DNA from: a virus
Taxonomy: Duplodnaviria > Heunggongvirae > Uroviricota > Caudoviricetes
DNA length: 64,000 nt
Direction: 5' to 3' (one strand)
IMG/VR virus record: IMGVR_UViG_3300031867_000016
Location: 27,293 to 91,292 of that record
How positions within the stretch are numbered: position 1 is the stretch's first letter; each line of letters begins with the position of its first letter. The notes under the pieces were generated by a model. The model did not search any database. It was given only the letters and a program-made list of their open reading frames with translations, and was not told where the DNA came from. The translations under genes were made by a program, and so were the position numbers. This document shows, piece after piece, positions 6 through 51,555 of the stretch.

Positions 6-347
6 ATGCGTATGGCAAAGATGCCGCCAAGTATTGTTGAAGATAACGAAGGCTTTGACTGGGATGAGCTTGGTGAATCATTGAAGCTTGAAGTTGAAAT
101 GTATAACAATGAAAGTAATGATCTGGTTGTCCTTGCCAAACAGATCAGAGAATTCCTGCAGGAAGAAGTATCTCCTGTGGTTGCTCAGGAGCAGAATGAA
201 TTGTTTAAGAATATGGTTGAATATCTTAAAGCAAATAACGAACAGGCAAAAGAAAAGCCTAAGACATTAGGTGAAACAAAAGAAGAACAGATGGGACAGA
301 TTCATTATCTGTTTCCAAATCTTAACTTCGATGAAAAGAAGCATTGA
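6..347 (+). CDS. acidic hypothetical protein, putative tail assembly chaperone (lies immediately upstream of the tape-measure gene)
   Basis: 113-aa ORF, acidic and helical-looking. Position directly 5' of the TMP is typical of gpG-like chaperones. No motif recognised. The 5' end may be truncated by the window edge. Confidence 0.4.
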   Translation: MRMAKMPPSIVEDNEGFDWDELGESLKLEVEMYNNESNDLVVLAKQIREFLQEEVSPVVAQEQNELFKNMVEYLKANNEQAKEKPKTLGETKEEQMGQIHYLFPNLNFDEKKH

Positions 348-352
348 CTTAC

Positions 353-387
353 GGGCTGTCGCATTAAGTGCGACAGCCCTCTTTTAC
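353..387 (+). terminator. stem-loop (11-bp stem gggctgtcgca/tgcgacagccc) followed by a T-run; putative attenuator/terminator between chaperone and TMP
   Basis: Perfect inverted repeat at 353-363 and 369-379, followed by tcttttac. Confidence 0.5.
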
Positions 388-456: not shown

Positions 457-3400
457 ATGTCTGAAATGAAAAAGACAATTGGTTTAGAAATTGATGCAAC
501 ATTAAAAGGCGGAGAACTTGATACCAAGCTTGAACAAATGTTTCAAAGTGTGCAACGAGCAAGGGAAGGCATACAGGGTATGCGAGATGACCTTGCCGAA
601 ATGCCAATGCTTGGAGATATGTTAAATGCAAAGCTCCAGACAACCGGTTCTCTTGCTGAAACAATGGAAAGAAAAATAACATCGCTGCGTGAGTCTCAGG
701 ATAAGATGGATGATGATACACGTGCACAGGCGGTTGAAAATTTAAATAATACATATCGAGAGTTTTCAACTCTCAGAGAAATGCAGAATGATGCAAGTCA
801 GACGTATGGAATTGGTTATGCAAAACAGTTTGCAGCAAATTTATCAAAGGATCTTTCTGGAGCATTTGATAGAATTATGCCACAAGTTGTCAACATGATC
901 AGGACAAAAATGAACAGCGGTCGCGATATTGATGCAAGCTATGCAAACGCTCATACAATAGAAGGAATACAAATAGCTATGAGCAAAGACAAAGGTTTGC
1001 TTAATTTGTTGAGAAATGGTTTGCCGACAGAAGCATTTACAAACGGCAAAGTGATGGATCAATTCTTTGGGATCGCCGCCTCACAAGCTGCCGATTATCA
1101 CAGACTCAATGCGTTTACGCAAAAGATGTTTGGTGTGAATGCTTCGAGAGTTGAAAAACGCTCTGTTATTCGGTCTACGCCGGCAGAATATATACCAGAA
1201 AGTTTTAAACCATCTTTTGAATCTCGCGGTTATGTAGGCAAAGAAAAATTTAGATCTTCGGACAAAGTAATAAGCAATGACATCAGAAGTCAAATTGTAG
1301 AAGCACTGAACAATAATCCTGTATTATTGAAAGCTGCTAATGATGCTAAGCTTATTCAAAAAGATGCACAGTATGGGAATCAGCATCTTATTGAAAATAT
1401 TACAGACAGTCAGATGGATGAGTTCAGAAGACAGGCTTATAGACAACTTGAAATTCGTGGACGTGGGACAGGAAAATATGAACTTGCAAGAGGAATTTAT
1501 TCCGGTGAAGCAAGCGATGACAAAGGTCCAAGCGAGCAATTACAGAGCACCATAGCAAACCGCTTTCAAACTGGCACTACCCGTCAGGCTGTAGAAGGTC
1601 TTGTTTTTCTTGACAGACTTGGCGACAAAGATGAGAACTATGTAACTGCAACACGAGGTGGACATGGACAGGGCAGTATTATAAGACCACAGAGGCAGTT
1701 GCTTGATATGTATCAGATAGGTCGTGCCACACCTTTTGTCGGCGGCAAACCCAGCATTGGAAGATATGATTACGTATCGGTAAACGAATCTGATATCACA
1801 AGAATACTTGGCCTTGATAAAAGGGGAGACAGATCTAAAGCGTATCGAGAGATGTCAACTATATCGCTGAATGGATACGATCCTAAGAATAAAGAACATG
1901 TCGATCTCATGAAGCGGATTTATGAGAATGGTATATGGGTTGATCAGAATACCGGCGCCTGGCGACTTGACAGACCGATGACTGACGATGGTCAGTATGA
2001 CAGCAACTATGTACAGCATAAATTCCACGCTGCACACAGAGGTGAAGATGGTGCAGTTCTTCGAATGCTCAATGCTGACATGATGGAACAGATTGCCAAA
2101 ACAACAGGCGAAAGAGCGAAAGAACTTGGTCTCAGCGGAAACTTCTTGAATATGTATTCAGCAAATGACGCAAAAGAATTTGGTCAGATGCTTGAAGACG
2201 GAACGTATCTTGCAAACGATGCAAGCAAATATTTTGATGCTATCAATAAAATGTATTCTCCTTCCAGAAAAATTGAAAACAATTTGACTGGCAAGAATGT
2301 TGCTGTTGTTGACTTTGCTGCAAATGGCTTCAAGTATGCAGACGGTGTAGGCTGGGTGTCATCTGACTATCTTTCTCATGCTATTCAGGCTAGAGGAGCT
2401 TCTGGTTTTAAAGGGCAGCTTATGCCATTCCAGGGTGGAACGATTCGCGACTACCTTGTTAAAACAGGACTTGCTTCTACGCAGATGCTCAATGAAAATG
2501 GAGAATATGTAGAAGATCCAACAGGCAAACTTCACTATTATATGAAGAGTATCAATGGCACAGACATGATTGATGTCATGGATGCTCAGATACTTACTGA
2601 TGCTTCGTTGTGGAAGAATGCAGCAAGGCAGTTTAAATATCAAGATGAGAATGGAAATTGGCAGTGGCATTCAGGAGAAAAGATAAATCAGCTTGCAAGC
2701 AAATTGATTGGTGAAGTTGGTTTATCAGAGATGGTAGATCTTGACCGCGAAAGCGGAGCTGCTTCTCTCGGCACTCAGCTTACATCATATCTTACGTTGA
2801 ATCCGATGATGAGAAAGCTGCAGACCGAAGGTCTGAAGAAAAGACTTGCCGAACTTGATACATATGAAGGCATGAAGAAATATGTATTCTCAAATCCAGA
2901 AGCAGACGAGATGTCGGCTGTTCTTCAGGATCCAGCGAATGAATGGCTGCTTAACACAAAGGCATACCGTGATCGTGTGGATCTTTACAGACAGTCCTTA
3001 ATTCACGATGTATCAACACATAAGTTTGTAGACTTTGACAATGGCTCTGACTATTATGGATATATTGCAGATGAACTCTTTGGACAGGACTGGAGAAACG
3101 GTAAGACAGATCTCAATAAAGCACAGTCTGTATTAAACAGATGGCGTGAAAGTGGATATCATTACGAGAGAGATCTTCGTGAATCTGGAATATCAGGCGT
3201 ACCTGAACTGTTTGATATGATCGATAAAAACGCCAATGGTGAAAAAGTCGATCCAGCTGCTTACCTCGGACAGCTTGCCCAAAATATAAATGGTCAAAAC
3301 GGGAGCGGTTCATTTACAAATGTTACAAACTCTGTTGGCTTATTCTCTGCTTTGTTACAGAACAAAGGCGAAATACCTGCGGCAATTATGGATACTGCCA

Positions 3401-6400
3401 GAAAAGCACTTAATGAAAAGTATGGAGAGGGACAGTATTCAGACGAAGATATAAAAGATATCTTGCTTTTGAGAAAAAAGAAGTACACAGATGAAAATGG
3501 AAAAGAACGCGAACTGAGTAATGTTATAGACTTTGGTACTGACGAAAGACACGTTGCGTATGCAAGATCTCCATCTGCTTTTGGAGCTTTCATTCATGGC
3601 GTAAACAGAGCAGAAGAAATGCGCGTTATTCAAAATGCGATGCTTGCAAATGGAACAAGCAATCCATTATTCAACGAGTTATTCAGTGCTGGTGGAGATC
3701 CGTTTCTCAGACAGAGCGGTGTTTATCTTGGGCAGGATGACTGGAAAGATCTTTCTGGCGCCGATGCTGACGGCGACAGAATCAAGAGAATAACTGGTGT
3801 ATACGCTCAGATGATTCAAGCCAGCCGTGAAAGAGCTGACGATCTTGAAGAGTTTGCTAATCAGGTACTTCCTGGAGAAGCAAAGCGAATTGGTGAACTC
3901 AAGCTTGCTGATTTAAAAACTCTCGACAAGATACCAAATAATGTTCAGGCTTTTCTTAATGATATTGAACGTCTTTCAAGCGAAGGACGGGAGATGGGTC
4001 TTGCCAATGCTACTGCATTGAATCCGATGCAGATGAGCCTTGATGACTTTACCGCAAATGGAGCGAAGTTTGTTCTCTCAGCAAAATATGGTAACAAAAT
4101 ATACGATGAATATGCTTCGACTTTTAGAAAGAATCCGAAGAACCCGATCATTCATGGTGATGAATGGTACAGAGCACAGACTCTTGGACAAAACTTTGAT
4201 GCCTATTTATCTCATGAGGACAGACTTTTTCAGTTTAATGATGACCAGAAAGATACTGTTGAAAAATATCGGGATAATATAAAAGCATTAAGAAGCGGCA
4301 ATTTCTCAGATAAAACGAAAGAAGCAATAGAAGAAGAACAAAAAGCATTAAAAAGCGAATTTGATAAACTTGGCATATTTGAAAGTTCTTATGGAGAACT
4401 GATCAATCTAAAGCAATTTGAAGGACCGGATGGTAGAACATGGGGCATGAATATCAATATGCCTTCTGTGAATATGGACGGTCACATCTCTGGTATTGCC
4501 GCTGCACAAACGGCATATAGGATGGGACGTGTTGATCTATCAAAAGCAGAGAGTGTTTCTGAAGCTATTGCTTATATGATAGAACATAGTCCTAAATATG
4601 CAGAAGCAACAGATGAAGTTAAAGACTATCATCAGGCATATCTTCAGATGTTTCCACAGTTTTCTTCTGGCGCACGTGGTCGAGTAAGCGAAGCAGAGCT
4701 TGCAGACCTTCAGTCCAAGAGACTGGCAGCTCAAGCGTCTATCAGAAATATGGTAACAGCAAGAAAACAAAAAGACATGGCAGAAAACGGACTGGATAAA
4801 TATTCAGCCGTTTTTTCTGATGGTACCAATATTGCTGATTACGAAAAAGAATTGCTAAAGAAGTATCATGTTAGTGATAACGGAATCGACGTTGTAAGCA
4901 ATTTGGGTCTTTTTGGTTTTACTTCCAGGAATTTAAGAGAGTCTCTCAATGATCAGGGCTACAGCTTCTTCTTTAATGATCCGAATACTAGACTTGTAAA
5001 GCGCAACCAGACAATGATGCAGCAGATGCAGGAAGCTGAACAAGTAAGAGAAGATGAATTATCTGAAAGAGAAAGAATAATTCAGGAAGGTCTGAATTCT
5101 TTTGAGGCTGATGCAAATGGAAAACAGGATACTCAAGCTGCTGCGAAAGCAAATCAGGAAGCAAACAACGCAGAAGCAAAAGCCAGTCAAGCTGAAATAG
5201 ATGCAGCCAATGCAAGAAAAGACGCTGCTGAAGCAAGAACGGCTGCTGCCAATAGTGTTCAATCAGAAGCGCAGGCACAGCAAGCTCAGGTTCAAAAGAG
5301 TCAGGCTAAACAAAAGCATGCTCTTGATTACGCAGAATATACTGTAACAAGAACGATGCAATGGATGAAAACTGATACTGTTGATGACAGGAATCATCCA
5401 GCAATAAGTCTTGATAACGTTTATCATGTTGATAAAGACGGAAAAGCAACAAAAGGCGATCTTGCCATAAGTATGAAGCCTTACGAAGGCAATACTATGG
5501 CAGAAGGAAGGCTGCATCAGGCTAGAACTGAAAAAGCTGGTCATAGTGAATCTGGTGCAGATGCTATTATAGGAAGCCTTATTAGTCATGTCATGGATGA
5601 TCTTGGAGCCAATCATGCAAAGAATGGCAAAGGAATTGCTATTAATAACATTCGCAGTCAAGCAACAACATCAATGAAGAAGTTTTATGCCGATCACGAA
5701 AACGAAATAAAAGCGCTTGGAATTACTTTTGATAATGATGACCTTTTTTCCAATACTGGTCTGAGTCATTTTCATTATTCTGGAACAGATGACAGGCTTG
5801 GAAAAAAGATCGGCATGTTATCTGCTGATAATATGGCATCTTATTTCGTTGATGATATCCTTGGAATCAAAGCAATAAAAACTAAGAATGATGAAGCAAG
5901 ACGTATTGTATCAACAGAAGGAAAAATATATGGCAAACGTGGGAAAGTATTAAATGAAAGTACCATGGTTGCCGGTCCTTCTGGTGGAGAAAAAGAAATA
6001 GCTTATACACTTCCTGGAATCAAGAATTCCAAAGGCGAAGATGTTGTCACACGTTTTGCTCCAGACTATGTTGTACAGAATAAAGAAGACAAACTTATTA
6101 TTGGTGACCATAAATCCAGCGACTCAGGTACCAAAAAAGGTTTACTTCAGACGTTAATATATGCTTCGTGGTTAGACGATCTCGCTGAACAATATCACAG
6201 ATCTTATAACGCTACAACAAAGACGTATGAAAGAAAAGATCTTGAAGCATACGGACAGTTTGGTAGTATTGATGGAAACGGAAAATATGTAACCAATATT
6301 GCTGGCGTTGAGACACGAGACTTTTTCTCACGTGCTGGATATATGCGTAGATATAGCCCAGAAGATAGAACTCGTTTCAAGACACTTATTCGTGATGCAC

Positions 6401-9400
6401 AGGATAGTAAATATTTAGAAGCATTAGATGACTACGCTGCTTATGGATTACAGTCAATACCTGAACCGACTGCGGAAAATAATCCAACTGTTGCAAAAAT
6501 GAGCGACCGTCAAAGAAATGCGCTAATGCAGCAGTATCAAATGCTTAGTCAGAGATATGCTGGCTATGAAGATTTCGCCAGAAGTTTTCATTCTGGTATG
6601 ATGCAGGAAGTCTATAGAGATAGAGAAGGCACATATGCCGACAACTATTTTTCTCAGAAAACAGGTATGCGTAATGCTGTCGTAAGACAGTCAGAAGAAC
6701 TTCAGAAGGCATATCAGAACTTCTTGGATCAATCTGGTATGAAAGATGACTCTGGTTTATTGGGCAAATTGAATCAGGATATTCTTGATGCCAACGAAGC
6801 CTTTTCTGCTGGCACACGGGCATGGAGCGAAAACAGATCAATCAAACTGCTTGAAAATGCCGAAAACTTCAGTCTTCGTAAAACAGATCCATTCTATAAA
6901 CAGAGAGAAGAAATAGATAAGCAGAGAAATAATGTTACCGAAATGGAATCTGCTATCGATAATTTTATTCTCTCGAGAATAAATAGATCGAACTATGTGA
7001 CTGATGAGAATGGAAAAGTAATAGGCATAAATGAAAACGGCAACACAGTTAATATAAGAGATGCGAAGCTTGTTAGTCAGGAAGACACTGACACTGTATC
7101 CTCAATGAAAACAAGACTCGAATCTTTGAAAACTACAGCCGATGAAAATATTCAGCTTATCAACGATCAGATAGAGCGTGATGTTGACAAACAAATTGCA
7201 GACATGCAGGAAGCAAGCGATTCTGTTACAAAAACGCATCAGACTTCTGGTCAGCAAAGAAAGAATTATTGGGATAAAAGAAAAAGAAAACTGAATGATT
7301 CAGTAAAAGATATGACTCTTGCTCGTGATGCTATAGACAAAATGCTTGAAGATACTGAAACATATAAAGAAGACGATCCTAAGAGGAAACAGCTTGAACG
7401 TCTGCGTGATCAGTATAACAAGTCTATAGGTCAGGAATCTGAATATCTCAATAACGGCGGCTTTGACAAAGATCGTCAGGATGATCTTGAGGCTCAGAGA
7501 ATAAGCAGGTTCAATAAATTACGTCATTATTTCTCAGGGACCAGAGAGAGTGCAGTAGCTCAAATGGTTTCAACTGGTATGCTTGCAATGAAAGATCTTG
7601 ATAATAGAGGCGACACATTTAATGTCGGTAATCAGTTCTATCAGGGCATGACAAGAATGCTCGATGAATCAATTGGTACTGAAAGAACTAAGTACGCTAA
7701 TTTTGTTGATGATCTTTCAAGAGCCGGTAATATGTCTGCCGAAGAAAGAATAAACAGGAATTATCAGAATAAACGCATACAGTCTCTTGCATCTATAAGA
7801 CAAATGCAGCAGGAAGCTATTGATCTTGATAGAATGCTTGATACTGGAAAAGATCTTGAAGGCAGAGAAATATTTAGCCCAGATGACAATAGTGCTACAA
7901 CTCAAGGCATAAAAGACAGGATCAAAGAATACAGAGACTTTCTTAAGGATGTTTCAAAACAGGCTCAGGAAGCTCTTGATAAAACTCTTCCTGATCAAAA
8001 AGACAGAGATGTTGCAAGAGCACTCGAAGACATAAAAGCTCAAAATGAGATGCAGGCTGATAGATATCAGTATGGCGCTAACCAGATCCAAAGATCCGAA
8101 GCTGCTCGCAGGCGTCAGCTTGATATGCATTTAAGTGGCTCTCATAGTGTATTCCGTCAGGAGTTAGAATGGAGAAGAAGCCAATACGATAACGCTACAT
8201 CTCGAAGAGAAAGTTATTCGTTAAGACAAAAGCAACTAGATGCCGAAAGGACTAAACTTCAGAGACAGCTTGATGATGACAATGCAAATGGAAAAAAGTT
8301 GAGTGCTGAAAAGAGAACAGGTATTGAAAACCAACTTAATGCTGCAACTGCAGAATACAATGCGCTTGGTGACGCAATTGACAGAGCCAAGCAAGAGCAA
8401 GAAGAGTTTGGAGCATCAGGGCAGGAAGCTGCTGCTGCATTAACAGTAATCGGCACAAAAATATCTGCTGTTGCAAAACAATTCGGTGCTCGTATATGGC
8501 GTAAAGCAATACAGGAAACGATGCAGTTTGTACAACAGTATGACGCAGCAATGACCGAGATTCAAATGGTTACGCTCAAGTCTGACAGTGAAATAGCCAA
8601 TATTGGCAAAGGTCTTATTAACTCTGCTGTTGAAATGAAAGCACCTATTGCTGATGTGACATCAGCTGCTACAGCTCTTTATCGTCAGGGCCTTGGAGAT
8701 GAAGAGGTTCAGACTCGTCTTGAAGATGTTATTAAATTCTCTACAACAGCAGGAGTTAAAGCTGCAGACGCAGTAAAGCTTATTACCGTTTCTCTCAGTT
8801 CTGGTCTTGTTGAAAGTTCAACGGAAGCAATGGATGTTATATCAGCGCTTGGTGACTCAGCTGCCACCACAGCAGCTGAGATCACCAAAGGTCTTCAGAA
8901 ATCTGTGTATGCTGCAAAAGATGTTGGCGTCACTTATCAAGAACTTGTATCGATGCTTACGGCAATTACTGCTGGTACTCAGCTTGGCGGTAACGTTGCT
9001 GGCACTGCAATGCAGACATTTATGAGCCGCTTTGCAAGAATCGGTACAAATGAAATTACCTACGATGAAGATGGCAATGAGATAAGTGGTTCTAATCTTG
9101 CAACTGCTCTCAGAGCTGTAGGTATTGAAACATATAAAAATGGATCTCGGAGAGACTTTACTGAAGTATTGAGAGAGCTTTCTAGTCAATGGGGAAGTCT
9201 TTCCGATGCAAGAAGAAGTCAGATCTCTTATGCTTTTGGTGGCACGAGACAGTATTCGAACCTCAATGCATTGCTTACTGCATTCGGTGAAAAAGATGAA
9301 AATGGCCAGACTGCTATTGATAAATATCTCGACATTACAGGAAAATCTGCTGGTGTTACAGATGAAAAGTATACACATTATACAGAGAGTCTTGCTGCAT

Positions 9401-12400
9401 CAGTGACAAATTTAAAAAATAGTTTTGATGGCCTTATTGAATCATTAACAAACACCGGTGTTCTTACTGGTTTTCTTGACTTTATTTCAAGCGCCATTCA
9501 AGGAGCAACACAATTATCTGAAAGTCTTGGTAGCCTTGGTGGCGTTATTTCGAGTCTGTCTATATTAGCTATTCCTATAATATCTTTACTTATAGGCGGA
9601 GTGCCTGGGCTGGTTGCTGGTGGTTTGGCTGCAGCAGGTTTATCTACGATATATGCTTCTATAAATGCCGCAAACAATAAGCCTTCTTTATCAAATTATG
9701 CTGCTGCAAAAAGCAAAGTGTCTTCAGAACAAACATTAATCGATGAAAAAGTACAGAGAGCTAAAGAGCTTAATGGTTTGAGAGATAAAGATGGAAATCT
9801 TTCAGAAGAAAACAACATACAGCTTAAAAAGACATTAGCTGAATTGAGCGACATGGGAGCTCTTTCATTGGATGCCTCTACAAGTATTGAATCACTTGCT
9901 TCGAGTGCAGCCAATACAGCAAAAGCACTTGACAGTGTTTCTGCTTCTTCGAAAACATTAAGCGATAAACAAAAGCAAGAATTGTGGAATGGGCTTGTTG
10001 CTGATATTAAGAATGATAAAGATAAATTCAGCGAGATTCAGCAGGAGACAATAATATCTGACGAAGAAAAAACGAAAGCAAGAGAAGCGATTAATAGTTT
10101 TTCCCCAGAAAAAGGTCTTGCTGCTCTTTCAATTATGAAAGATATAACTCCAGTTATCGGCGCGATTGATTGGACTGGTTTTGGCAATGTTGTTCAAAAA
10201 GTTGGTTCAAATGAATACACGACTGTAAGTCAAATGAGCAACGACGAAATTGCTAGAGCATTCACGCAATATTTACGTTATCATAGAAGTCCAAATGAAA
10301 AAGAAAGACTTTCGGTTGAACAGTATGCTGGAATATACGATAAAATAAGTGGAGTTATTGGCGGAGCAAAGACTGATACAAAAGATGAAGTTAAATTCGG
10401 AGACTATTATAAGGATAAAATATCGGCTGCTGTAAAAGATATGCTGACTGGATCTTTAGAAGACGATGAAATACAGCAAGTTGTTGGCGCAATTGTAAAA
10501 GATCTTAACGAAGGTAAATCCATAGATGATGTAAATGTGTTGGACTATGCTTCTAGTGTAATACGAAATGCTGGAAAGAAAACCTCTTCAACCAATTTAA
10601 AAGCTATTGCAGATCTTACGTATTCTATGTCAGAAGAAGGAAAAAAGAAAACACAAGGGCAACGTTTTGATAGACTGTATAAAGCTTTAGCTATCTCTGG
10701 AGCGCCAGTGCAAACATGGTTGAATTCAATGAAGCTCGATGCAAATAGCGCATTGTTTAATTCTTATATGAGTGATCCAAATGTTGCAAAGGCATTTTCG
10801 GAGATGGTAGATGAAAGCGGGAATTATAACGGCAATCAAAAAGCCTATCAGAATTTCTTAAACACAATAGCTGCTGCAAGTAATTATTATGGATCATCGG
10901 TCTATACAAGCAACAAACAGATGTCATCAAACGCATTCGGAGCTTTTACAAAACGCCGCAGAGGTATAAATGTTTCTGAACTTGGTCCAGAATATTCTGA
11001 ATCAGAGATGAAAACAATTCTTGGTGATGAATTGTTTTCCGAATTTGTATCTGGCAACTGGGCGCATGCTGGAGAAATGCGTCGGCGTATAGAAGCATAT
11101 GGTGTTGGTCTGCCAGCATATACAGATTATCAAAATGCAACAGCTGCTACTCGTGTATTGAACAACGGTGCGGCTGACTTTTCTAATACTAGACTTCAGG
11201 AAATATATCAAACAATTCCAGAGTTACAGGAATATCTTGCAGTGCAAGGTTATTCTGAACAAAAAAGATCCAACCTTGGTTATTCTGACAATTGGCTTGA
11301 GAATCAAAGAAGTATAATAGAAAAAAGAATAAACGAAATAGAGACAAGTTCCAAAATACTTGAGTCAGCGTATTCAGATATTTCAACAAACGTTGCAAAT
11401 GGTTTTTCAATGACAGCATATGCCCCAGATGCATTGTCTACATATGGTGATCTTATTTCTCAGTATGATAATTTTGCTGAAACCCAGAGATCTCTGAATC
11501 GCCTTAAAAGCAATTCTTATAATGAAGAAGATCTTCAGCGTCTTGCAAGCCAGACAGGTGTTAATATTCGTGCATCAAATGCTTCGAACGAATCTATAAA
11601 AAAGAACGTAGAAGCTGCATTTAATGTTCAGCTGGATAATTATGTAAATGGAATCACAGAGGGATTGGAAACATTAATTCCGCAGAGCGCTCTAGATACA
11701 CTTACTGAAGGAATGAATGCTGATGATATTGTTTCTGCGTTACAGGATGCTGGCGTAAAGCTTAATGACTGGGCTATTAATGCAATAAAAGATCTTGGTC
11801 TTGTATTCCAGAATGGTAAGTTTGTTCCTAATGCAGATGGCTTAACTGATGCTTTTGGTGATGCAATTAAAGGAATGCTTGAAGGCGTATCTAATTCTAA
11901 CACTGCTTCTTCTACAGCATTAAATGCAGTAAAGCAGGCTGTTCTTATGGGCGGAGGTGTTGCTGGATATAAAGACTATCTCAACACCAATTATAAAAAT
12001 GTTGATATCTCTGCTCTTTCTTCGAACGCTCAAAATATTCTTGGAATGTATGAAAACGGTTTGTCTTCTGCAAATACATCAACACTTCTTGAATATGAAT
12101 CTAGCCCATACAGAACAAAAGGTTCGGATTACTACAAAGCATATCTCGACTTCTATAACGCCAACAAAAACAATGATGATATGTTGAATTCAACATATAT
12201 GCAGAATGCTCAGAGTATTCTCAGTTCTCTTGATGGTTGGCAGGAATATGTGGATACAGGTAATATGGACAAACTCAATGCAGCTATTGAGCTTGCCGGT
12301 TCAAATAAATACACAGATGCATATTCTCAGTTTGCTACATATCTTACTCAGTTTTACGGTACACAGAGTCAGCAAAACGAATTAATGACATCAATGTTTG

Positions 12401-15400
12401 CTCGTGGCAAATCGCTTAGATATAACAATTATCTTTCAAACATGCTGGAAGGTGGAGCATCTGGAGATGCATTCTTTGGCGAAGTTGCTTCTGCTCTTGG
12501 TGGGAGTTGGACTGCTGATCTCGTTAAAGAAAACAAAGGCGAAGCAAAGAAGCAGCTAGATAATATGAAAGATACTTCGAAAGAAGCTATTAATACTCTT
12601 ATTTCTAGTGTAATTGGTGAAATAGCAGAGCTCAAAGGTGTTAAGCTTGATATTGATACAGAAAACATTGTTGAAATATTAAGAAATACCGGAAACGAAT
12701 TAGCTTCAAAGCTTGCTAATTACATCGAAGCTATGGGTAATGTTGATATTGGAGCTCCAGAAAAAACTCTGGGTAACATTGCTCAGGAAACCAGAGATAG
12801 AGCTATGCAAGGATCGAACTATTATAAATATGGTCTTGCTTCGGAATTGCATAAGGCTGGTATAAGCATATATGATGAAACTGGTGTAGGAAAGTTTATT
12901 ACAGACAATCCAGAGTATTCAAAAGATGCTGTAGAAAGCCTGCTTGGTGATAGTGACTTTGTTCATATTACTGATGCTGCTTCTCGTGGTGTTATAAGCG
13001 GAGAAATGTATGATAAATATTTGTCGACCATGCAAAGCGGTCACGGTAATATGAATGATGTATATATGAATGCATTAGATCATATTTTCGGAGTTGGCGA
13101 ACAGGGTACATTCCTACGGAATTTTGAATCTGCGTCTCCAAAAGAGGCAATGTCAATGATTAATGAACTCCAAGTTCCAGATTACAGCTGGATTATGGAT
13201 TGGATTAACTCTCTCAATGGAGGCAAAGATGCGCTAGATAATATTGCGGCTGGAGGAGAACAAGCAGCAGAAGGCATAAAGCAACTTACAGCAGCTATGA
13301 AATTAGATGCAGCCGAAGCTGGAAGCGCAAAAAATGAACTAGTCGAAATAACTAATATTATTAATGATCTTAAAAAAGGTGGTCAAGATGCCGGTAAAGC
13401 AGTAGGCCAGCTTTCAAAAAAAGTTAATGATGCATACGACAAAGTTCTTGCTTCAGGTAAAATTCGCGGTAAATCAGGTAAAGAAGTTGACAAGACAACA
13501 AGGGGCATCATTGGAGAATTTCTTGGGGTATCTGATGATAAACAGATTCAAAAAATGACAAAAGAACAAATGAATCATGTTGCAGATCTTATGGAAGCTT
13601 CTGGAAAAGATGCGATTGACAATGGTTTTGTAAAAACTTTTGAAGATGAATTGATGTCAGCTCTTAATTCGCTTGATCCTGGATCAAAACAGTATGAATT
13701 GGTTAACAGTATTTTGTTAAAAGCTGTTGCCGATGGACAGATTGATACATCTGAACTTGAACAGGTTATTGCTGCTCTTCAGAATGATGTTCTTAGTACA
13801 ATGTATGCTGCAGCTGGACCAATAGGTTCACTTATGTTAAGCATTTTTGCTTCAACAAATTCTATTACAGCTGCACTACAGGCAGGTGGAAGACTTGGTT
13901 CTGCGCTTCTCAGTGGAGCAAAAGCCAATGTGAAACTTAACACTGGTAAAAACGCTAAGTATCAAAGTCATGGCGGCGGTGGCGGCGGAGGTGGCGGAGG
14001 AAAAGAGGAATCCGCCGCACAGAAGCTTGTCAAGCGTGTAAACAAAGGTGATGAACTCTTTGAATATCAGCGCAAAATGATTCAGTATAACCAGACAAGA
14101 TATGAAAATCGTGGCGAATTACAGAGATACGGTGCCGAACTTCAGAACGAGATTGATCTCGAAAAAGCTTATCTACCTGTTCTCAAACAGAACATTGATG
14201 CAATGATGACTCAACTCAAAAGTACCAGCAAAGGTTCAGAAGACTGGTATACTCTTCGTGAAGCAATCTTTAAAGTCAGAGAAGAGTATTCTGATATTAC
14301 TAATACCATTGAAGAGAACACCAAGAAACTCAAAGAGAATGAGGATGCAATTAGACAGACTCGTACTAATCTTGAGGATATGGTTAAAGGAGTAATTGAG
14401 GAGCGTATCCAAAAACAAAGAGACATGCTCGCCGGTACTGTTGATATTCAGGGCTTAATACTTGACGCTATAAAGCAGAGATATCAGGATGAATGGGATC
14501 TCATTAAGAAAGACATTGAGAAGAAGAAAGAAGCTCTTGAACAAGAGAAGTCTCTCATAGACGAACGTCTTAACAAGCGCAAGTCTGCAGCTGATGAGGC
14601 TAAGAAATATGAAGAGCTTGCTGAGATGAAAGATCAGCTTTCAAGAATTTCAATGGACAGTACCAGGACAAAGGACGCTGCAGCTCTACGTGAACGCATT
14701 TCTGAACTCGAGCAAGAGATTGGTTGGGACATTGCTGATAAGCAGGCTGAAGCCGAAAAGCAAGGCATTGACGACCAAATCAAAGCTTACGATGAGCAGA
14801 TCTCTGAAGGCGACGAAGATCTTGCAGCATTCCTTGAGGATGCAAACAACTTCAGCGAAGAGATTACAAAAATTCTTGAGATGAATCATGACGATCTCTT
14901 TGCGTGGCTGAGAAATAATGTTGATGAATTCAAAGATAGTCTTGATGAAGCACAGCAGCAAATGATCGACAGCTGGAATGATACCTACAAACAAATGTAT
15001 GGCATCACTGACACGTATTGGGATGAAATCGATGCTATTCTCAAAAGTAAAGATACATTTATTGCTGAAATGATGAACAGTGAAGAGTACAAGAATGCTT
15101 CTGATACAGAAAAGGAATCTCTTCTTTACAAATATGATCAAGACTGGGAAAGTTACTACAATGCATATTTTAAAAAGCCAGGAGATGTTTGGGGTTGGAG
15201 CTCTGATCAATTTGGTGACTGGTCTGGTTCAGAATATGCCGGCGCTGGTGGCGGCGGTGGTAGCGGAGGAGCAGCTAGTTCTGGCGGTGGGCCTGGCAAT
15301 AAGAAACCTGAAGATGAATTATTGTATTATGCTGTCGATGAGCGCGGTAATTTAATATCTTATGGTTATAAAACAAAAGCAGAGGCGCAAGCTATAGCAA

Positions 15401-16026
15401 ATAGAGATCAGAGTGCAAAAGTAATGCAGTTGCATAAATCAAATGCGGCTGCAGAAGCTAAAGCAAATACAGCTGTTGGAAGTATTGTCAAAAAAACAAA
15501 GAAAGCAGCAAGTAATATAGCAAACTCTGCAGTTGGAAAAACTGTGACAAGCGCCGTACAGGGTGCTGCTTCAACAATTTCTTCAGCTGCATCAAAAGTA
15601 GCTAGTTCAATAGCGGATGCATTCAAAAAAATACTGCCATTTGATACTGGCGGATACACTGGAGATCAGGAAGGCATTGCTTACATTCACAAAAAAGAAC
15701 GCATTCTGAATCCGCAGCAGACTGAGTCTTTTGAAAAGCTGTCTCAAATTGCTGACAGTATGAACAGAACAAATATGCTTAGTAATCTGTTGAACAGAAT
15801 GGACAGCTTCTCAAGCTCCGTATCTATTCCAAAGATCATTCCAGACTTTTCACCTGCTGACTTCAAGCAGTCTACTACAACTACCATTGGTGACATTATC
15901 ATTACACTCAACGAGGCAAGACTTGAAAACGATGCTGACTACGAAATGGTTGCACAGCGTGTTGGAGAGAACTTTGTCAAAGAACTTACAAAGCAAGGAC
16001 TTGGAGTCTCTGTTTTTGGTTTTTAA
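457..16026 (+). CDS. tail tape-measure protein, ~5190 aa
   Basis: Giant ORF. The ORF track begins at GTG 448; the ATG at 457 is preceded by GGAG. A TP901/PhageMin_Tail-type tape-measure core lies at about aa 2700-3050 (…AVAKQFG…QMVTLKSDSE…ALYRQGLG…VISALGDSAATT…MQTFMSRFARIG…SQISYAFGGTRQYSN…). It is followed by a hydrophobic GGxxG segment (LSILAIPIISLLIGGVPGLVAGGLAAAGL). The rest is mostly coiled-coil/charged sequence with Gly-only linkers (G11 at ~nt 13960-14000; GGGGGSGG at ~15240). The gene lies between a chaperone-like gene and a Dit-like gene. Confidence 0.85.
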   Translation: MSEMKKTIGLEIDATLKGGELDTKLEQMFQSVQRAREGIQGMRDDLAEMPMLGDMLNAKLQTTGSLAETMERKITSLRESQDKMDDDTRAQAVENLNNTYREFSTLREMQNDASQTYGIGYAKQFAANLSKDLSGAFDRIMPQVVNMIRTKMNSGRDIDASYANAHTIEGIQIAMSKDKGLLNLLRNGLPTEAFTNGKVMDQFFGIAASQAADYHRLNAFTQKMFGVNASRVEKRSVIRSTPAEYIPESFKPSFESRGYVGKEKFRSSDKVISNDIRSQIVEALNNNPVLLKAANDAKLIQKDAQYGNQHLIENITDSQMDEFRRQAYRQLEIRGRGTGKYELARGIYSGEASDDKGPSEQLQSTIANRFQTGTTRQAVEGLVFLDRLGDKDENYVTATRGGHGQGSIIRPQRQLLDMYQIGRATPFVGGKPSIGRYDYVSVNESDITRILGLDKRGDRSKAYREMSTISLNGYDPKNKEHVDLMKRIYENGIWVDQNTGAWRLDRPMTDDGQYDSNYVQHKFHAAHRGEDGAVLRMLNADMMEQIAKTTGERAKELGLSGNFLNMYSANDAKEFGQMLEDGTYLANDASKYFDAINKMYSPSRKIENNLTGKNVAVVDFAANGFKYADGVGWVSSDYLSHAIQARGASGFKGQLMPFQGGTIRDYLVKTGLASTQMLNENGEYVEDPTGKLHYYMKSINGTDMIDVMDAQILTDASLWKNAARQFKYQDENGNWQWHSGEKINQLASKLIGEVGLSEMVDLDRESGAASLGTQLTSYLTLNPMMRKLQTEGLKKRLAELDTYEGMKKYVFSNPEADEMSAVLQDPANEWLLNTKAYRDRVDLYRQSLIHDVSTHKFVDFDNGSDYYGYIADELFGQDWRNGKTDLNKAQSVLNRWRESGYHYERDLRESGISGVPELFDMIDKNANGEKVDPAAYLGQLAQNINGQNGSGSFTNVTNSVGLFSALLQNKGEIPAAIMDTARKALNEKYGEGQYSDEDIKDILLLRKKKYTDENGKERELSNVIDFGTDERHVAYARSPSAFGAFIHGVNRAEEMRVIQNAMLANGTSNPLFNELFSAGGDPFLRQSGVYLGQDDWKDLSGADADGDRIKRITGVYAQMIQASRERADDLEEFANQVLPGEAKRIGELKLADLKTLDKIPNNVQAFLNDIERLSSEGREMGLANATALNPMQMSLDDFTANGAKFVLSAKYGNKIYDEYASTFRKNPKNPIIHGDEWYRAQTLGQNFDAYLSHEDRLFQFNDDQKDTVEKYRDNIKALRSGNFSDKTKEAIEEEQKALKSEFDKLGIFESSYGELINLKQFEGPDGRTWGMNINMPSVNMDGHISGIAAAQTAYRMGRVDLSKAESVSEAIAYMIEHSPKYAEATDEVKDYHQAYLQMFPQFSSGARGRVSEAELADLQSKRLAAQASIRNMVTARKQKDMAENGLDKYSAVFSDGTNIADYEKELLKKYHVSDNGIDVVSNLGLFGFTSRNLRESLNDQGYSFFFNDPNTRLVKRNQTMMQQMQEAEQVREDELSERERIIQEGLNSFEADANGKQDTQAAAKANQEANNAEAKASQAEIDAANARKDAAEARTAAANSVQSEAQAQQAQVQKSQAKQKHALDYAEYTVTRTMQWMKTDTVDDRNHPAISLDNVYHVDKDGKATKGDLAISMKPYEGNTMAEGRLHQARTEKAGHSESGADAIIGSLISHVMDDLGANHAKNGKGIAINNIRSQATTSMKKFYADHENEIKALGITFDNDDLFSNTGLSHFHYSGTDDRLGKKIGMLSADNMASYFVDDILGIKAIKTKNDEARRIVSTEGKIYGKRGKVLNESTMVAGPSGGEKEIAYTLPGIKNSKGEDVVTRFAPDYVVQNKEDKLIIGDHKSSDSGTKKGLLQTLIYASWLDDLAEQYHRSYNATTKTYERKDLEAYGQFGSIDGNGKYVTNIAGVETRDFFSRAGYMRRYSPEDRTRFKTLIRDAQDSKYLEALDDYAAYGLQSIPEPTAENNPTVAKMSDRQRNALMQQYQMLSQRYAGYEDFARSFHSGMMQEVYRDREGTYADNYFSQKTGMRNAVVRQSEELQKAYQNFLDQSGMKDDSGLLGKLNQDILDANEAFSAGTRAWSENRSIKLLENAENFSLRKTDPFYKQREEIDKQRNNVTEMESAIDNFILSRINRSNYVTDENGKVIGINENGNTVNIRDAKLVSQEDTDTVSSMKTRLESLKTTADENIQLINDQIERDVDKQIADMQEASDSVTKTHQTSGQQRKNYWDKRKRKLNDSVKDMTLARDAIDKMLEDTETYKEDDPKRKQLERLRDQYNKSIGQESEYLNNGGFDKDRQDDLEAQRISRFNKLRHYFSGTRESAVAQMVSTGMLAMKDLDNRGDTFNVGNQFYQGMTRMLDESIGTERTKYANFVDDLSRAGNMSAEERINRNYQNKRIQSLASIRQMQQEAIDLDRMLDTGKDLEGREIFSPDDNSATTQGIKDRIKEYRDFLKDVSKQAQEALDKTLPDQKDRDVARALEDIKAQNEMQADRYQYGANQIQRSEAARRRQLDMHLSGSHSVFRQELEWRRSQYDNATSRRESYSLRQKQLDAERTKLQRQLDDDNANGKKLSAEKRTGIENQLNAATAEYNALGDAIDRAKQEQEEFGASGQEAAAALTVIGTKISAVAKQFGARIWRKAIQETMQFVQQYDAAMTEIQMVTLKSDSEIANIGKGLINSAVEMKAPIADVTSAATALYRQGLGDEEVQTRLEDVIKFSTTAGVKAADAVKLITVSLSSGLVESSTEAMDVISALGDSAATTAAEITKGLQKSVYAAKDVGVTYQELVSMLTAITAGTQLGGNVAGTAMQTFMSRFARIGTNEITYDEDGNEISGSNLATALRAVGIETYKNGSRRDFTEVLRELSSQWGSLSDARRSQISYAFGGTRQYSNLNALLTAFGEKDENGQTAIDKYLDITGKSAGVTDEKYTHYTESLAASVTNLKNSFDGLIESLTNTGVLTGFLDFISSAIQGATQLSESLGSLGGVISSLSILAIPIISLLIGGVPGLVAGGLAAAGLSTIYASINAANNKPSLSNYAAAKSKVSSEQTLIDEKVQRAKELNGLRDKDGNLSEENNIQLKKTLAELSDMGALSLDASTSIESLASSAANTAKALDSVSASSKTLSDKQKQELWNGLVADIKNDKDKFSEIQQETIISDEEKTKAREAINSFSPEKGLAALSIMKDITPVIGAIDWTGFGNVVQKVGSNEYTTVSQMSNDEIARAFTQYLRYHRSPNEKERLSVEQYAGIYDKISGVIGGAKTDTKDEVKFGDYYKDKISAAVKDMLTGSLEDDEIQQVVGAIVKDLNEGKSIDDVNVLDYASSVIRNAGKKTSSTNLKAIADLTYSMSEEGKKKTQGQRFDRLYKALAISGAPVQTWLNSMKLDANSALFNSYMSDPNVAKAFSEMVDESGNYNGNQKAYQNFLNTIAAASNYYGSSVYTSNKQMSSNAFGAFTKRRRGINVSELGPEYSESEMKTILGDELFSEFVSGNWAHAGEMRRRIEAYGVGLPAYTDYQNATAATRVLNNGAADFSNTRLQEIYQTIPELQEYLAVQGYSEQKRSNLGYSDNWLENQRSIIEKRINEIETSSKILESAYSDISTNVANGFSMTAYAPDALSTYGDLISQYDNFAETQRSLNRLKSNSYNEEDLQRLASQTGVNIRASNASNESIKKNVEAAFNVQLDNYVNGITEGLETLIPQSALDTLTEGMNADDIVSALQDAGVKLNDWAINAIKDLGLVFQNGKFVPNADGLTDAFGDAIKGMLEGVSNSNTASSTALNAVKQAVLMGGGVAGYKDYLNTNYKNVDISALSSNAQNILGMYENGLSSANTSTLLEYESSPYRTKGSDYYKAYLDFYNANKNNDDMLNSTYMQNAQSILSSLDGWQEYVDTGNMDKLNAAIELAGSNKYTDAYSQFATYLTQFYGTQSQQNELMTSMFARGKSLRYNNYLSNMLEGGASGDAFFGEVASALGGSWTADLVKENKGEAKKQLDNMKDTSKEAINTLISSVIGEIAELKGVKLDIDTENIVEILRNTGNELASKLANYIEAMGNVDIGAPEKTLGNIAQETRDRAMQGSNYYKYGLASELHKAGISIYDETGVGKFITDNPEYSKDAVESLLGDSDFVHITDAASRGVISGEMYDKYLSTMQSGHGNMNDVYMNALDHIFGVGEQGTFLRNFESASPKEAMSMINELQVPDYSWIMDWINSLNGGKDALDNIAAGGEQAAEGIKQLTAAMKLDAAEAGSAKNELVEITNIINDLKKGGQDAGKAVGQLSKKVNDAYDKVLASGKIRGKSGKEVDKTTRGIIGEFLGVSDDKQIQKMTKEQMNHVADLMEASGKDAIDNGFVKTFEDELMSALNSLDPGSKQYELVNSILLKAVADGQIDTSELEQVIAALQNDVLSTMYAAAGPIGSLMLSIFASTNSITAALQAGGRLGSALLSGAKANVKLNTGKNAKYQSHGGGGGGGGGGKEESAAQKLVKRVNKGDELFEYQRKMIQYNQTRYENRGELQRYGAELQNEIDLEKAYLPVLKQNIDAMMTQLKSTSKGSEDWYTLREAIFKVREEYSDITNTIEENTKKLKENEDAIRQTRTNLEDMVKGVIEERIQKQRDMLAGTVDIQGLILDAIKQRYQDEWDLIKKDIEKKKEALEQEKSLIDERLNKRKSAADEAKKYEELAEMKDQLSRISMDSTRTKDAAALRERISELEQEIGWDIADKQAEAEKQGIDDQIKAYDEQISEGDEDLAAFLEDANNFSEEITKILEMNHDDLFAWLRNNVDEFKDSLDEAQQQMIDSWNDTYKQMYGITDTYWDEIDAILKSKDTFIAEMMNSEEYKNASDTEKESLLYKYDQDWESYYNAYFKKPGDVWGWSSDQFGDWSGSEYAGAGGGGGSGGAASSGGGPGNKKPEDELLYYAVDERGNLISYGYKTKAEAQAIANRDQSAKVMQLHKSNAAAEAKANTAVGSIVKKTKKAASNIANSAVGKTVTSAVQGAASTISSAASKVASSIADAFKKILPFDTGGYTGDQEGIAYIHKKERILNPQQTESFEKLSQIADSMNRTNMLSNLLNRMDSFSSSVSIPKIIPDFSPADFKQSTTTTIGDIIITLNEARLENDADYEMVAQRVGENFVKELTKQGLGVSVFGF

Positions 16027-16032
16027 TTTACA

Positions 16033-16072
16033 GCCACGTGGGCCGCTTTCAGCGCGGCCCACGTGCTTTTAT
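16033..16072 (+). terminator. rho-independent terminator after the TMP gene
   Basis: 12-bp GC-rich stem ccacgtgggccgc / gcggcccacgtg with loop tttcag, then cttttat. Confidence 0.6.
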
Positions 16073-24377: not shown

Positions 24378-25367
24378 TTAAAAGCATAACGCCGCATACA
24401 TGGCGTCAAATCCATCGCCGTACAGATGAATGTATGTATTGTATGTGACCTGTACAGAACTGTGTCCCATCAATCGGCTAAGGATCTTTACGTCAATGCC
24501 TTTATAATAACAGTTGGTTGCAAACGTGTGTCTGAAGACATGTTCTCCGTAGTAGGGGATATTGTTTTCCTGACACAGTTTTTTAGTTTGATACACAAGC
24601 TTCTTGTAAGTGTAGCGCTCTCCGTCCTGCTCAAACACCCATTCGGTTGTACGCTTAAGCTGCAGTGTTTTCAGCAGCAGCAAAGCTTTTGGTGTGAGAG
24701 GAATGGTTCTATTGCTCGCCTTACTTTTGGGTGAATCCTGATAAGTGCTCTTATTTGTCGCATGTGGATTGATGATCGTGGCATGTATTCGCAGCCGGCA
24801 TCTTGATATATTTACATCGGACCATTTGAGAGCAAGCAGTTCTCCGCTTCGAATACCTGTTTCGATCATGAACAGCATCGCAACATACCCGGCATTATCC
24901 ATGTTTTCTTTTACGGCCTTGGTAATGATTGCCTGCTCCTCTTCAGTGTACGCAATTATTTCTTTTGTCTGCTTCTCAAGTATCTCTACCTTTGGATACT
25001 CTATCCCTATAGATGGATCAGCCGGTATGAGCTTCATAGAAGCTGCTCTCTTCAAAGGTGCTGTCACGATCTCAACTTGTTTCTTGATCGTGCTCATACT
25101 GTAATTCTGTTCAACCAGCCAGTTCAAATAAGCTTGAACATCGAACAGATTGATATCACGGATAGGTACCTTTGCCAGAGGATGGCTTGCGAATGTATTG
25201 CGACTCTGAACAAGCCTTGCGAATGTTGCCTTCTTAACAGAATTCTTTTTAAACAGTTCAAGCCATGTATCAATAAAGTCAATCAATACTGTATTTGAAT
25301 CCACTCTGAGTTCCTCCAATCGAGAAACCCCATTGCGGACATCAGTGTACATATTTAATTCAGACAT
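24378..25367 (-). CDS. int: tyrosine site-specific integrase (phage integrase family)
   Basis: 329 aa. The C-terminal catalytic region contains HVFRHTFATNCYYKGIDVKILSRLMGHSSVQVTYNTYIHL (R…H-x-x-R…Y). The N-terminal part resembles a SAM-like core-binding domain. RBS is gaggaa. Confidence 0.9.
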   Translation of the reverse strand: MSELNMYTDVRNGVSRLEELRVDSNTVLIDFIDTWLELFKKNSVKKATFARLVQSRNTFASHPLAKVPIRDINLFDVQAYLNWLVEQNYSMSTIKKQVEIVTAPLKRAASMKLIPADPSIGIEYPKVEILEKQTKEIIAYTEEEQAIITKAVKENMDNAGYVAMLFMIETGIRSGELLALKWSDVNISRCRLRIHATIINPHATNKSTYQDSPKSKASNRTIPLTPKALLLLKTLQLKRTTEWVFEQDGERYTYKKLVYQTKKLCQENNIPYYGEHVFRHTFATNCYYKGIDVKILSRLMGHSSVQVTYNTYIHLYGDGFDAMYAALCF

Positions 25368-47047: not shown

Positions 47048-47721
47048 AGAAGACCGCCTCCTCCGCTACCTGTATTCTTTATTAAAATATAAGTATCTTG
47101 CACAACTGGCTGCCCTGAATATAATTCCATAGTATTGTCATCAGTTATGATATAGTAATCATAAGTATTTGTACTATACGATGATAACGTTTCAATAACA
47201 CCGCCATATTCTACTTGCTTCTGTTCGACTTGTTCGTTAGCAGCCCAATATGTTACCGTATACGTCCTTACTGTTTCATTCCATACGGCATACAGGTTCC
47301 TGTCAGCAGTAATATTTTTCTTTGCATTAGCATCAACTGCTCCACCATTAGTTCTCGACCAGCCAGCAAATGTATAAGTTTTATCTACTGTTGGTTCCTT
47401 TGTAGGCGTCTCATTCCATGTAGCGTTCTGTCCGCTGGTCCATATCGACTCCGTATGAAGCCATTCATCGCCGTCGTAGTAGTCAACATCAAACCAGGTG
47501 TCACCTTTTTTAACAATTAGAGAACCTTCATCATCAATATATAATTTGAAATATTTATTACTGTTTGGTGTACATGACTTTACTGTTAAGAAGTCAACCG
47601 TATCTGAGCCAACAGACCAGTTGCGGAATATCTTGTCTTTAAAATAATGCAATACGGTATTGGAACCATTCTGTATTGCAACATGATCGTAATCATTTCC
47701 AGTTGTAACAGCCATCATCAA
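47044..47721 (-). CDS. Listeria-Bacteroides repeat (Flg_new-like) domain protein
   Basis: 225 aa; contains YTFAGWSRTNGG…YAVW. ATGA overlap with the upstream gene. Confidence 0.5.
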   Translation of the reverse strand: MMMAVTTGNDYDHVAIQNGSNTVLHYFKDKIFRNWSVGSDTVDFLTVKSCTPNSNKYFKLYIDDEGSLIVKKGDTWFDVDYYDGDEWLHTESIWTSGQNATWNETPTKEPTVDKTYTFAGWSRTNGGAVDANAKKNITADRNLYAVWNETVRTYTVTYWAANEQVEQKQVEYGGVIETLSSYSTNTYDYYIITDDNTMELYSGQPVVQDTYILIKNTGSGGGGLL

Positions 47722-51544: not shown

Positions 51545-51555
51545 ATGATCACACC

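Follow-up and report, generated by a model that had tools for sequence, protein, structure and literature searches.

An SPbeta-like phage tape-measure protein fused to a predicted two-barrel RNA polymerase and a probable nuclease

We analysed a stretch of 64,000 nucleotides (nt) from a tailed phage of the Caudoviricetes (IMG/VR record IMGVR_UViG_3300031867_000016, positions 27,293 to 91,292; hereinafter the window), near one end of which lies a giant gene coding for a tape-measure protein (TMP) with additional, apparently enzymatic domains. The first-pass annotation, made from the sequence alone, had called this gene a single uninterrupted open reading frame (ORF) of exceptional length, about 5190 amino acids (aa), and we indeed read one ORF of 5,189 aa from its ATG, with zero internal stops, at 457..16026 on the plus strand. 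Its ATG at 457, with an in-frame GTG at 448, is preceded by a GGAG ribosome-binding site (444-447) 9 nt upstream, and its stop codon occupies 16024-16026. The first residues match between the giant protein (MSEMKKTIGLEIDATLKG) and its homologue at the locus L010 (MSEETKRISLEIDATLKG), and ATG 457 is supported as the start because homologues begin with the same residues. The features of the gene and its immediate surroundings, all on the plus strand, are as follows.

457..16026 (+): giant gene, a fusion of predicted RNA polymerase (RNAP), probable nuclease and TMP, 5,189 aa, from ORF calls and collinear homologues
457..1743 (+): family-conserved N-terminal region, aa 1-429; tiles of aa 1-600 match 10-22 of 22 giant relatives
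1744..4956 (+): predicted two-barrel (double-psi beta-barrel, DPBB) RNAP module, aa ~430-1500, of which aa 560-1260 were modelled
2386..2415 (+): DPBB-B basic motif Q644-A-R646-GASGF-K652-G653, corresponding by hhalign to the 'R..KG' of YonO (RLPWVKG)
2773..3468 (+): predicted connector joining the two barrels, ~230 aa and all helical (aa ~773-1004), located where a clamp would be (residues 214-445 of the AlphaFold2 model)
3565..3585 (+): DPBB-A entry motif R1037-S-P1039-SAF-G1043, corresponding to 'RSPHLF' of YonO
3763..3786 (+): predicted catalytic metal-binding loop D1103-A-D1105-G-D1107-RI-K1110 (DxDGD), aligned to DNDGDK of YonO
4984..5316 (+): low-complexity Ala/Gln/Glu-rich linker, aa 1510-1620, probably helical (64% E/K/R/Q/D/A)
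5494..6366 (+): probable Cas4/RecB-like PD-(D/E)XK nuclease, aa ~1680-1970, with RFAPD1870Y, IIGD1884-H-K1886SS and GLLQ1898TLIY1902
6454..8532 (+): charged helix-prone spacer, aa ~2000-2692, of variable length and not conserved in the family
8533..9543 (+): tape-measure core (TIGR01760, PF10145)
9523..9645 (+): hydrophobic Gly/Ala-rich segment, aa 3023-3063, a likely membrane-insertion or channel segment
9646..13653 (+): middle region of variable sequence (aa ~3064-4399), in which no domain is recognisable and which presumably acts as ruler
13972..14001 (+): run of ten glycines (aa 4506-4515) at the beginning of the C-terminal module that the family conserves
14032..15912 (+): conserved TMP C-terminal module, aa 4526-5152 (PHROG 4211 positions 2127-2599)
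353..379 (+): terminator-like hairpin, 12-bp stem then T-run, just upstream of the giant gene
16035..16065 (+): terminator-like hairpin, 12-bp stem with 10 G-C pairs, then T-run, shortly after the stop codon
16087..17154 (+): distal tail protein Dit (PHROG 33, Sipho_tail)
17176..22740 (+): tail-associated lysin or hub protein Tal, 1,854 aa, with a YomG-like N-terminus (Prophage_tail, YOMG_N)

The tape-measure core, which had been placed at aa ~2700-3050, is recovered well above the curated cut-offs by both Pfam PhageMin_Tail (PF10145, aa 2730-2924, E 1.4e-20, 74.5 bits against 33.2) and NCBIfam TIGR01760 (aa 2693-3029, E 5.7e-27, 94.6 bits against 28.8), and the TMP family PHROG 4211 matches the core together with the C-terminal region aa 4526-5152 (E 4e-24). 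The glycine-rich hydrophobic segment noted earlier after the core was located at aa 3023-3063, and is the sole transmembrane-like stretch of the protein. In tblastn searches of sequenced phages the nearest TMPs are YomI of the Bacillus prophage SPbeta and its relatives, long TMPs of Bacillus and Clostridia siphophages, which align over the core only (23-26% identity, ~400 aa). YomI shares with the giant protein the TMP core, the gene order TMP-Dit-Tal, flanking stem-loops and the absence of cysteine, but has 2,285 aa, an annotated transglycosylase and no RNAP module, whereas 2,600 aa precede the core in the giant protein, in which family-library scans detected no muralytic domain. The gene lies directly 5' of the Dit and Tal genes, both identified by family match, and in the locus of a relative a tube-protein gene is found upstream. 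The earlier placement between a chaperone-like gene and Dit/Tal thus stood for its downstream half; the upstream 113-aa ORF (6..347) gave no match in the family-library scans, and 'chaperone-like' describes its position only. The C-terminal module is expected, by analogy, to contact Tal or Dit, and its 'DTGGYTG...HKKERILN' stretch resembles what we take to be a common C-terminal motif of TMPs. The giant gene is bracketed by the two strong terminator-like hairpins, and yomI of SPbeta likewise has annotated flanking stem-loops; these hairpins may serve the isolation or attenuation of low-copy TMP expression.

Long glycine runs had also been noted in the protein and read as interdomain hinges. 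The longest is of ten residues (aa 4506-4515), not eleven as first counted, while the second was correctly read as GGGGGSGG (aa 4931-4938, nt 15247-15270). Eighteen of the 22 giant relatives have runs of at least five glycines. For the query and the three relatives closest to it, the distance to the C-terminus is 630-683 aa, which puts the runs immediately ahead of the conserved C-terminal module; in other family members the offset varies from about 200 to 1,300 aa. This fits a linker or a processing site and proves neither.

We recovered the relatives of the giant protein by an HMMER scan with aa 330-1529 against 1.84 billion cluster representatives, which matched 33 proteins. The match falls at the same N-terminal position in 22 of them, which have lengths of 3,699-6,777 aa and define a family of collinear proteins in about 22 clusters at 50% identity. 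The best match (P0001, 59% identity, 5,632 aa) stems from an independent assembly and aligns collinearly with the query almost from end to end. In a tiled comparison of the query with the 22 giant proteins, the N-terminal module (aa 1-1500) and the TMP core (aa 2600-3100) are kept in all of them and the C-terminal ~700 aa in 19-22; aa 3100-4200 are variable, and aa 1500-2500 find matches almost only in P0001, with a few in P0003 and P0005. Pfam searches of two distant members and the precomputed annotation of P0002 yield PhageMin_Tail only. The ten members that were looked up come exclusively from metagenome assemblies (Logan, ENA and JGI), on contigs of up to 170 kb. A scan of IMG/VR with a 6-sequence alignment gave two relatives, while a single-protein scan of IMG/VR found nothing and the 6-sequence alignment found no relative in GTDB genomes. 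At one of these IMG/VR loci, L011, the frame is open for at least 4,155 aa and contains the catalytic-loop motif, here as DYDAD; the contig of L011 is absent among the best 80 YonO loci listed. The gene neighborhood of P0002 (L092, Logan SRR10912537, 1-33416) runs from a YonB capsid gene through YomX_C, a YomU tube gene and several small ORFs to the 4,471-aa RNAP-TMP, followed by a 365-aa Dit, a 1,858-aa Tal, and proteins with Gp10_C and Mtd_N domains. As this locus combines YonB capsid, YomU tube, giant TMP, Dit and Tal, the phages carrying the family are SPbeta-like siphophages, and the giant gene of the window encodes the TMP of such a phage.

The same relatives answer the concern that the ORF is an assembly or annotation chimera joining genes for an RNAP, a nuclease and a TMP. 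Its extreme length and the lack of an identical protein on record for the neighbouring Dit gene would be in keeping with such an origin. Against it, all 22 independent giant proteins from the Logan, ENA and JGI assemblies keep the same N-terminal module, TMP core and C-terminal module; the long open frame of L011 and the called 4,471-aa gene of L092, the latter in the same context, repeat the arrangement, and the composition is uniform along the giant ORF. An assembly chimera is excluded because independent assemblies carry collinear giant proteins, and we regard an artefact of any such kind as extremely improbable.

The ~2600-aa N-terminal half had been described as coiled-coil or charged. 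This is true of aa ~1500-1620 and ~2000-2690, but aa ~430-1500 and ~1620-2000 are occupied by globular enzyme domains; the fallback suggestion, that this half comprises cargo or ejection domains fused to the ruler, was essentially right, given that an RNAP and a probable nuclease were found there. Routine searches had little to say about this half: Pfam, PHROGs and NCBIfam, run on ten overlapping 700-aa tiles, recovered the TMP core and C-terminus only and nothing for aa 1-2500, including Pfam and PHROG scans of aa 1-429, and phmmer searches of aa 1-1600, 1601-2650 and 3061-5189 against PDB sequences returned nothing meaningful. Neither tblastn with aa 1-2600 nor megablast with 24 kb of the window matched any of 50,697 phage records. 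A word-indexed protein search with the giant protein likewise gave no match, though homologues of up to 59% identity are in the same collection; its index may miss giant proteins.

Our best explanation, which taken as a whole we consider quite probable, is a TMP of an SPbeta-like siphophage whose N-terminal RNAP would be delivered through the tail; in this reading, aa ~430-1500 form a single-subunit two-barrel RNAP of the YonO / QDE-1 / crAss-vRNAP clade, with predicted polymerase activity. The translation holds a single DxDGD/DxDxD motif (SGADADGDRIKR, aa 1103-1107), with ARGASGFKG 450 residues upstream. In an N-terminal alignment of 24 sequences, 23-61% identical to the query, 111 columns reach at least 80% identity; D1103, D1105, D1107 and K1110 of the predicted catalytic loop, Q644, R646, K652 and G653 of the basic motif, and P1039, G1043 and N1050 are invariant (24/24), and R1037 is present in 22/24. 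These motifs resemble what we take to be the beta' 'RAPTLH...NADFDGD' and beta 'RHGxKG' signatures of cellular RNAPs. The basic residues characteristic of DPBB-B are found in R646 and K652, which align with the R..KG of YonO. Moreover, R1037-S-P1039, a 63-residue spacer and D1103-A-D-G-D1107 together conform to [RK]xPx{20,100}DxDxD, the filter used by Chaban et al. to recognise viral two-barrel RNAPs (PMC10770324).

This conservation also bears on whether the module might be a degenerate relic, a catalytically dead RNAP fold whose only use is to plug the tail, or act as adaptor, at its head-proximal end. The module lacks the C-terminal zinc-ribbon cysteines of YonO and its catalytic activity is a prediction, both of which would suit a relic. 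Dead enzymes, however, usually lose catalytic residues, and here all of them are invariant at 23-61% overall identity; we judge a relic to be very improbable.

For profile and structure comparisons we used an alignment of 23 family sequences over aa 560-1260 (A1). In hhalign, A1 matched a YonO-family alignment with 91.8% probability (E 7.4e-7, 309 columns) and a 20-sequence YonO alignment with 78% (E 1.8e-5), the DGxG..R..KG, RSP and DxDGD motifs being in register in both. AlphaFold2 run on A1 produced a confident model (mean predicted local distance difference test score, pLDDT, 82; predicted template-modelling score, pTM, 0.82), in which two DPBB domains form the RNAP core fold. The sole significant matches of the model in Foldseek were to QDE-1. 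Its structural neighbours and their scores were:

6vr4_B, virion RNAP from phi14:2, a crAss-like phage: 12.6 (426 residues aligned)
8f5m_A, P74-26 gp62, a homologue of the P23-45 non-virion RNAP: 11.4
8h2n / 8h2m, TMP-RNAP gp96 of P23-45: 11.3 / 10.5
7w84, RDR2: 9.6
7y7p, QDE-1: 9.4

The model would superpose on more residues of phi14:2 gp66 (426) than of gp96 (301). We consider the identity of the giant protein as a TMP, the RNAP fold, as modelled, the invariance of the catalytic motifs across a diverged family, and the fusion of all the parts in many independent assemblies to be established.

These observations can be set against the simplest reading of a very long TMP, namely that the entire 5,189-aa chain only sets the tail length (~0.75-0.8 um) and its N-terminal part is non-enzymatic. 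The TMP core, the hydrophobic segment and the gene context would all be accommodated by it, as would the case of the Thermus phage P23-45: here the TMP gp96 has 5,002 aa including an N-terminal RNAP, and the tail is reported, in a preprint (bioRxiv 10.1101/2022.12.01.518664), as 800 nm, corresponding to ~0.16 nm per residue when the whole gp96 chain is counted, so that an RNAP-bearing chain seems to count in full. By this analogy, the tail of ~0.75 um that the first-pass annotation predicted from ~0.15 nm per residue is plausible for the phage of the window. A mere ruler, on the other hand, needs neither invariant DxDxD, R/K and RxP residues nor a two-barrel fold, and conservation in the family falls on the enzyme module, on the core and on the C-terminus, and not on the spacers, which vary. 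The roles of ruler and enzyme are not mutually exclusive, and we give very little credence to a chain that is a ruler and nothing else.

The functionally closest system is gp96 of P23-45. Residues 327-1124 of this 5,002-aa TMP are an active RNAP; virions contain gp96 in full-length form, it is bound to the pre-early genes 5 min into infection, and the authors of that work proposed that it carries out transcription with the TMP pore still attached (PMC10770324). Structures are available (PDB 8H2M/8H2N), and homologues are known from P74-26, G20c and TSP4 (Chaban et al., Nat Commun 2024, PMC10770324); in the collection of 50,697 phage records, gp96 relatives number 10, all from Thermus phages. 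In both gp96 and the giant protein, RNAP and TMP are parts of one polypeptide with the RNAP N-terminal. By sequence and architecture, however, the giant protein falls outside the gp96 family. The hhalign comparison of A1 with gp96 alone, or with a 3-sequence profile, reached at most 2% probability over 28 catalytic-loop columns only, and that with a single gp64 sequence found no similarity beyond the catalytic loop. The connector of gp96 is 67 aa long and disordered, giving a 'flat', clamp-less enzyme (PMC10770324), in contrast to the ~230-aa connector of the query, which is predicted to be helical. Furthermore, gp96 carries a metallopeptidase domain, which Pfam and NCBIfam did not detect in the query, whereas the query has the additional nuclease domain. 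The phages differ as well, gp96 belonging to a thermophilic Oshimavirus and the query to an SPbeta-like phage of ~41% GC.

The nearest relatives detectable by sequence are those of the YonO family, from the Bacillus prophage SPbeta. YonO is an experimentally proven single-chain RNAP, which is non-virion and transcribes late genes (Forrest et al. 2017, PMC5467207). It shares its phage lineage with the query, as is apparent from the YomG-, YomU- and YonB-like structural genes, but is a free-standing protein of ~840 aa with 14 cysteines, including a C-terminal CxxC..CxxC, while the query module is fused to a TMP, free of cysteine and endowed with large insertions. Given that the YonO hidden Markov model (HMM) misses it, that it is fused and that it lacks the Cys-rich tail, we treat the RNAP module as a sister family to YonO, not as its orthologue. 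More remote are gp66 of phi14:2 (PDB 6VR4), from a podovirus-like crAss phage in which it is not part of the tape measure, and the eukaryotic cellular RNA-silencing enzymes QDE-1 and RDR2, all of which are only 10-16% identical to the query. Our full-text literature searches found no RNAP-TMP fusion described outside Thermus phages. The differences from gp96 in RNAP lineage, connector and phage type suggest an independent fusion event, which would be the simplest reading: a YonO-clade RNAP joined to the TMP of an SPbeta-like phage. We regard it as an evenly balanced proposition that RNAP-TMP fusions arose at least twice, once with a gp64/gp96-type RNAP in Thermus phages and once with a YonO-type RNAP in SPbeta-like phages, probably of anaerobic Firmicutes, where the tape measure would have become a multi-enzyme effector injected ahead of the DNA, possibly by a temperate phage, with the clamp-like connector kept. 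If so, the 'flat' clamp-less shape would not be required for passage through a siphophage tail.

The amino acid composition of the giant protein is distinctive. It has no cysteine in 5,189 aa, as against an average of 1.15% in the 12 other ORFs of the window, at which frequency its complete absence would have a probability of about 1e-26. The family (P0001-P0024) has 20 cysteines in 104,125 aa. Cysteine is also absent from the TMPs gp96 (0 in 5,002 aa) and YomI (0 in 2,285 aa), whereas the free-standing YonO has 14; therefore, the RNAP module has the Cys-free composition of a translocated tail protein, not that of its cytoplasmic relatives.

Downstream of the RNAP module, aa ~1680-1970 probably constitute a PD-(D/E)XK nuclease, for which the model indicates the core fold with the D...(D/E)xK and QxxxY motifs. 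The domain was seen only in the query, P0001 and P0003. Among related nucleases (Cas4, RecB, AddAB, Dna2 and MGME1), Cas4, AddB and Dna2 have a four-Cys iron-sulphur cluster; because the giant protein has no cysteine, its domain can have no such cluster. The domain also differs from the Cas4/RecB-like nucleases in that it would sit within a virion protein. Attack on host DNA and processing of the incoming DNA end are candidate roles.

The siphophage 80alpha offers a frame for the possible mode of action of these domains. In this phage, three TMP copies have their N-termini at the neck, immediately below the tail-completion protein capping the end of the DNA, and their C-termini bound to Tal at the tip; the TMP presumably exits together with the DNA (PMC11661146). 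By analogy, three copies of the giant protein would lie extended or unfolded within the tail tube, with their C-termini on Tal/Dit and their extreme N-termini at the neck, adjoining the end of the DNA. Upon infection, the TMP would be expelled C-terminus first, and the hydrophobic segment aa 3023-3063 would insert in the membrane and help form a channel. The N-terminal enzymes, free of cysteine, would be the last part out, immediately preceding the DNA, and would fold once in the cytoplasm. There the RNAP could transcribe those phage genes that enter first, with no need for the host RNAP, and possibly assist in drawing in the genome. This scheme follows by analogy the one put forward for gp96 of P23-45, and packaging, topology, refolding, timing and promoter use are all inferred. 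As the RNAP module is part of the TMP, the phage probably injects its own transcription enzyme.

Alternatively, the polymerase could be active without being a virion transcriptase: it might be released proteolytically in the cell and act on late genes as YonO does, or it might be an RNA-dependent polymerase, a primase or chiefly a DNA-pulling motor. Its nearest sequence relatives, the YonO family, are indeed non-virion late-gene RNAPs (PMC5467207), and the RNA-dependent polymerases QDE-1 and RDR2 are among its structural neighbours; further, the glycine runs recurring across the family are possible cleavage sites, and no early-promoter motif was found in the window. Yet the RNAP is at the N-terminus of a structural protein that is made late, the module is free of cysteine like translocated TMPs and unlike YonO, and the P23-45 fusion is found at full length in virions (PMC10770324). 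The glycine runs, moreover, lie far downstream (aa 4506 and 4931) and not between the RNAP and the TMP core. We consider it unlikely that the polymerase is active but no virion transcriptase.

Several points nevertheless weigh against a tail-delivered RNAP as we propose it. The RNAP reading of the giant protein stems from sequence and predicted structure; in a plain profile-to-sequence search the YonO HMM misses the giant ORF, and the family profile found nothing among PDB sequences, and thus the case for homology is built on profile-profile and fold comparison. The ~230-aa helical connector predicted here is unlike the flat gp96, whose shape Chaban et al. thought perhaps needed for tail passage (PMC10770324), and cleavage, e.g. 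at the glycine runs, could leave the RNAP out of the virion. The nuclease model is of moderate confidence only (pLDDT 62, three sequences). Within the window, the intergenic regions contain no repeated promoter-like motif (direct repeats, and 10/12-mers across 17 gaps, gave coding repeats and weak 10-mers only), and the YonO and family HMMs found no second RNAP gene in its 64 kb; owing to these two results, a transcription programme cannot be reconstructed from it. Lastly, an integrase gene adjoining the tail genes suggests a temperate phage, in which a virion RNAP would be unusual.

The remainder of the window provides hints to host and lifestyle. The tyrosine integrase (24378-25367, minus strand; PHROG 1, E 5e-53), which suggests a temperate lifestyle, comes directly after the tail module, at the point (~23.5 kb) at which the genes change orientation and the GC skew switches; in SPbeta, too, the integrase-like yomM is a few kb from the tape-measure gene yomI. 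A NrdD-like anaerobic ribonucleotide reductase fragment and a SpoIID/NlpC-P60/SH3 lysin are encoded at 37791-38990 and 43424-44773 (both on the minus strand), which together with the ~41% GC content suggest an anaerobic Firmicute (Gram-positive) host. At 45046-46509 (minus strand), a 487-aa ORF consists largely of 42-nt (14-aa) tandem repeats, matches both a YadA-head-like repeat and PHROG 25468, and is probably a fibre or adhesin. A second giant ORF of 2,364 aa (55378-62472, minus strand) has a C-terminal DUF6273 as its only recognisable part. A 795-aa ORF (47718-50105) was considered as a second RNAP and rejected, as it lacks DxDGD and resembles a tail or receptor-binding protein. Near the starts of this ORF and the next (50118-51203) lie a 50-nt repeat, 92% identical (47683-47732 / 51239-51288), and a 168-nt repeat, 80% identical (51082-51249 / 51423-51590), and the 50-54 kb region has internal repeats and raised GC (0.44-0.47). 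The repeats at 47-54 kb look like duplicated or recombining receptor-binding gene modules.

In conclusion, we describe a new family of TMPs, at present from metagenomes only, which bears a predicted two-barrel RNAP and, in the branch of the query, a probable nuclease, an arrangement of a kind described once before. TMP-fused virion RNAPs have so far been documented in one small group of Thermus phages, and the family presented here is a second one, with no detectable sequence similarity to gp96 beyond the catalytic loop. In practical terms, giant 'tape measure' ORFs in metagenomes merit screening for the DxDxD/RxP signature. If the enzyme is active and packaged, tail-delivered, host-independent early transcription would be a recurrent strategy of long-tailed phages and not a thermophile oddity, and a mesophilic, SPbeta-related system would become available for the storage and threading of a ~170 kDa enzyme in a tail tube, its contribution to the ruler, and the pulling-in of the genome. 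It would likewise provide an evolutionary link between the late-gene RNAP YonO and the virion RNAPs, and the embedded nuclease would represent a new kind of injected cargo.

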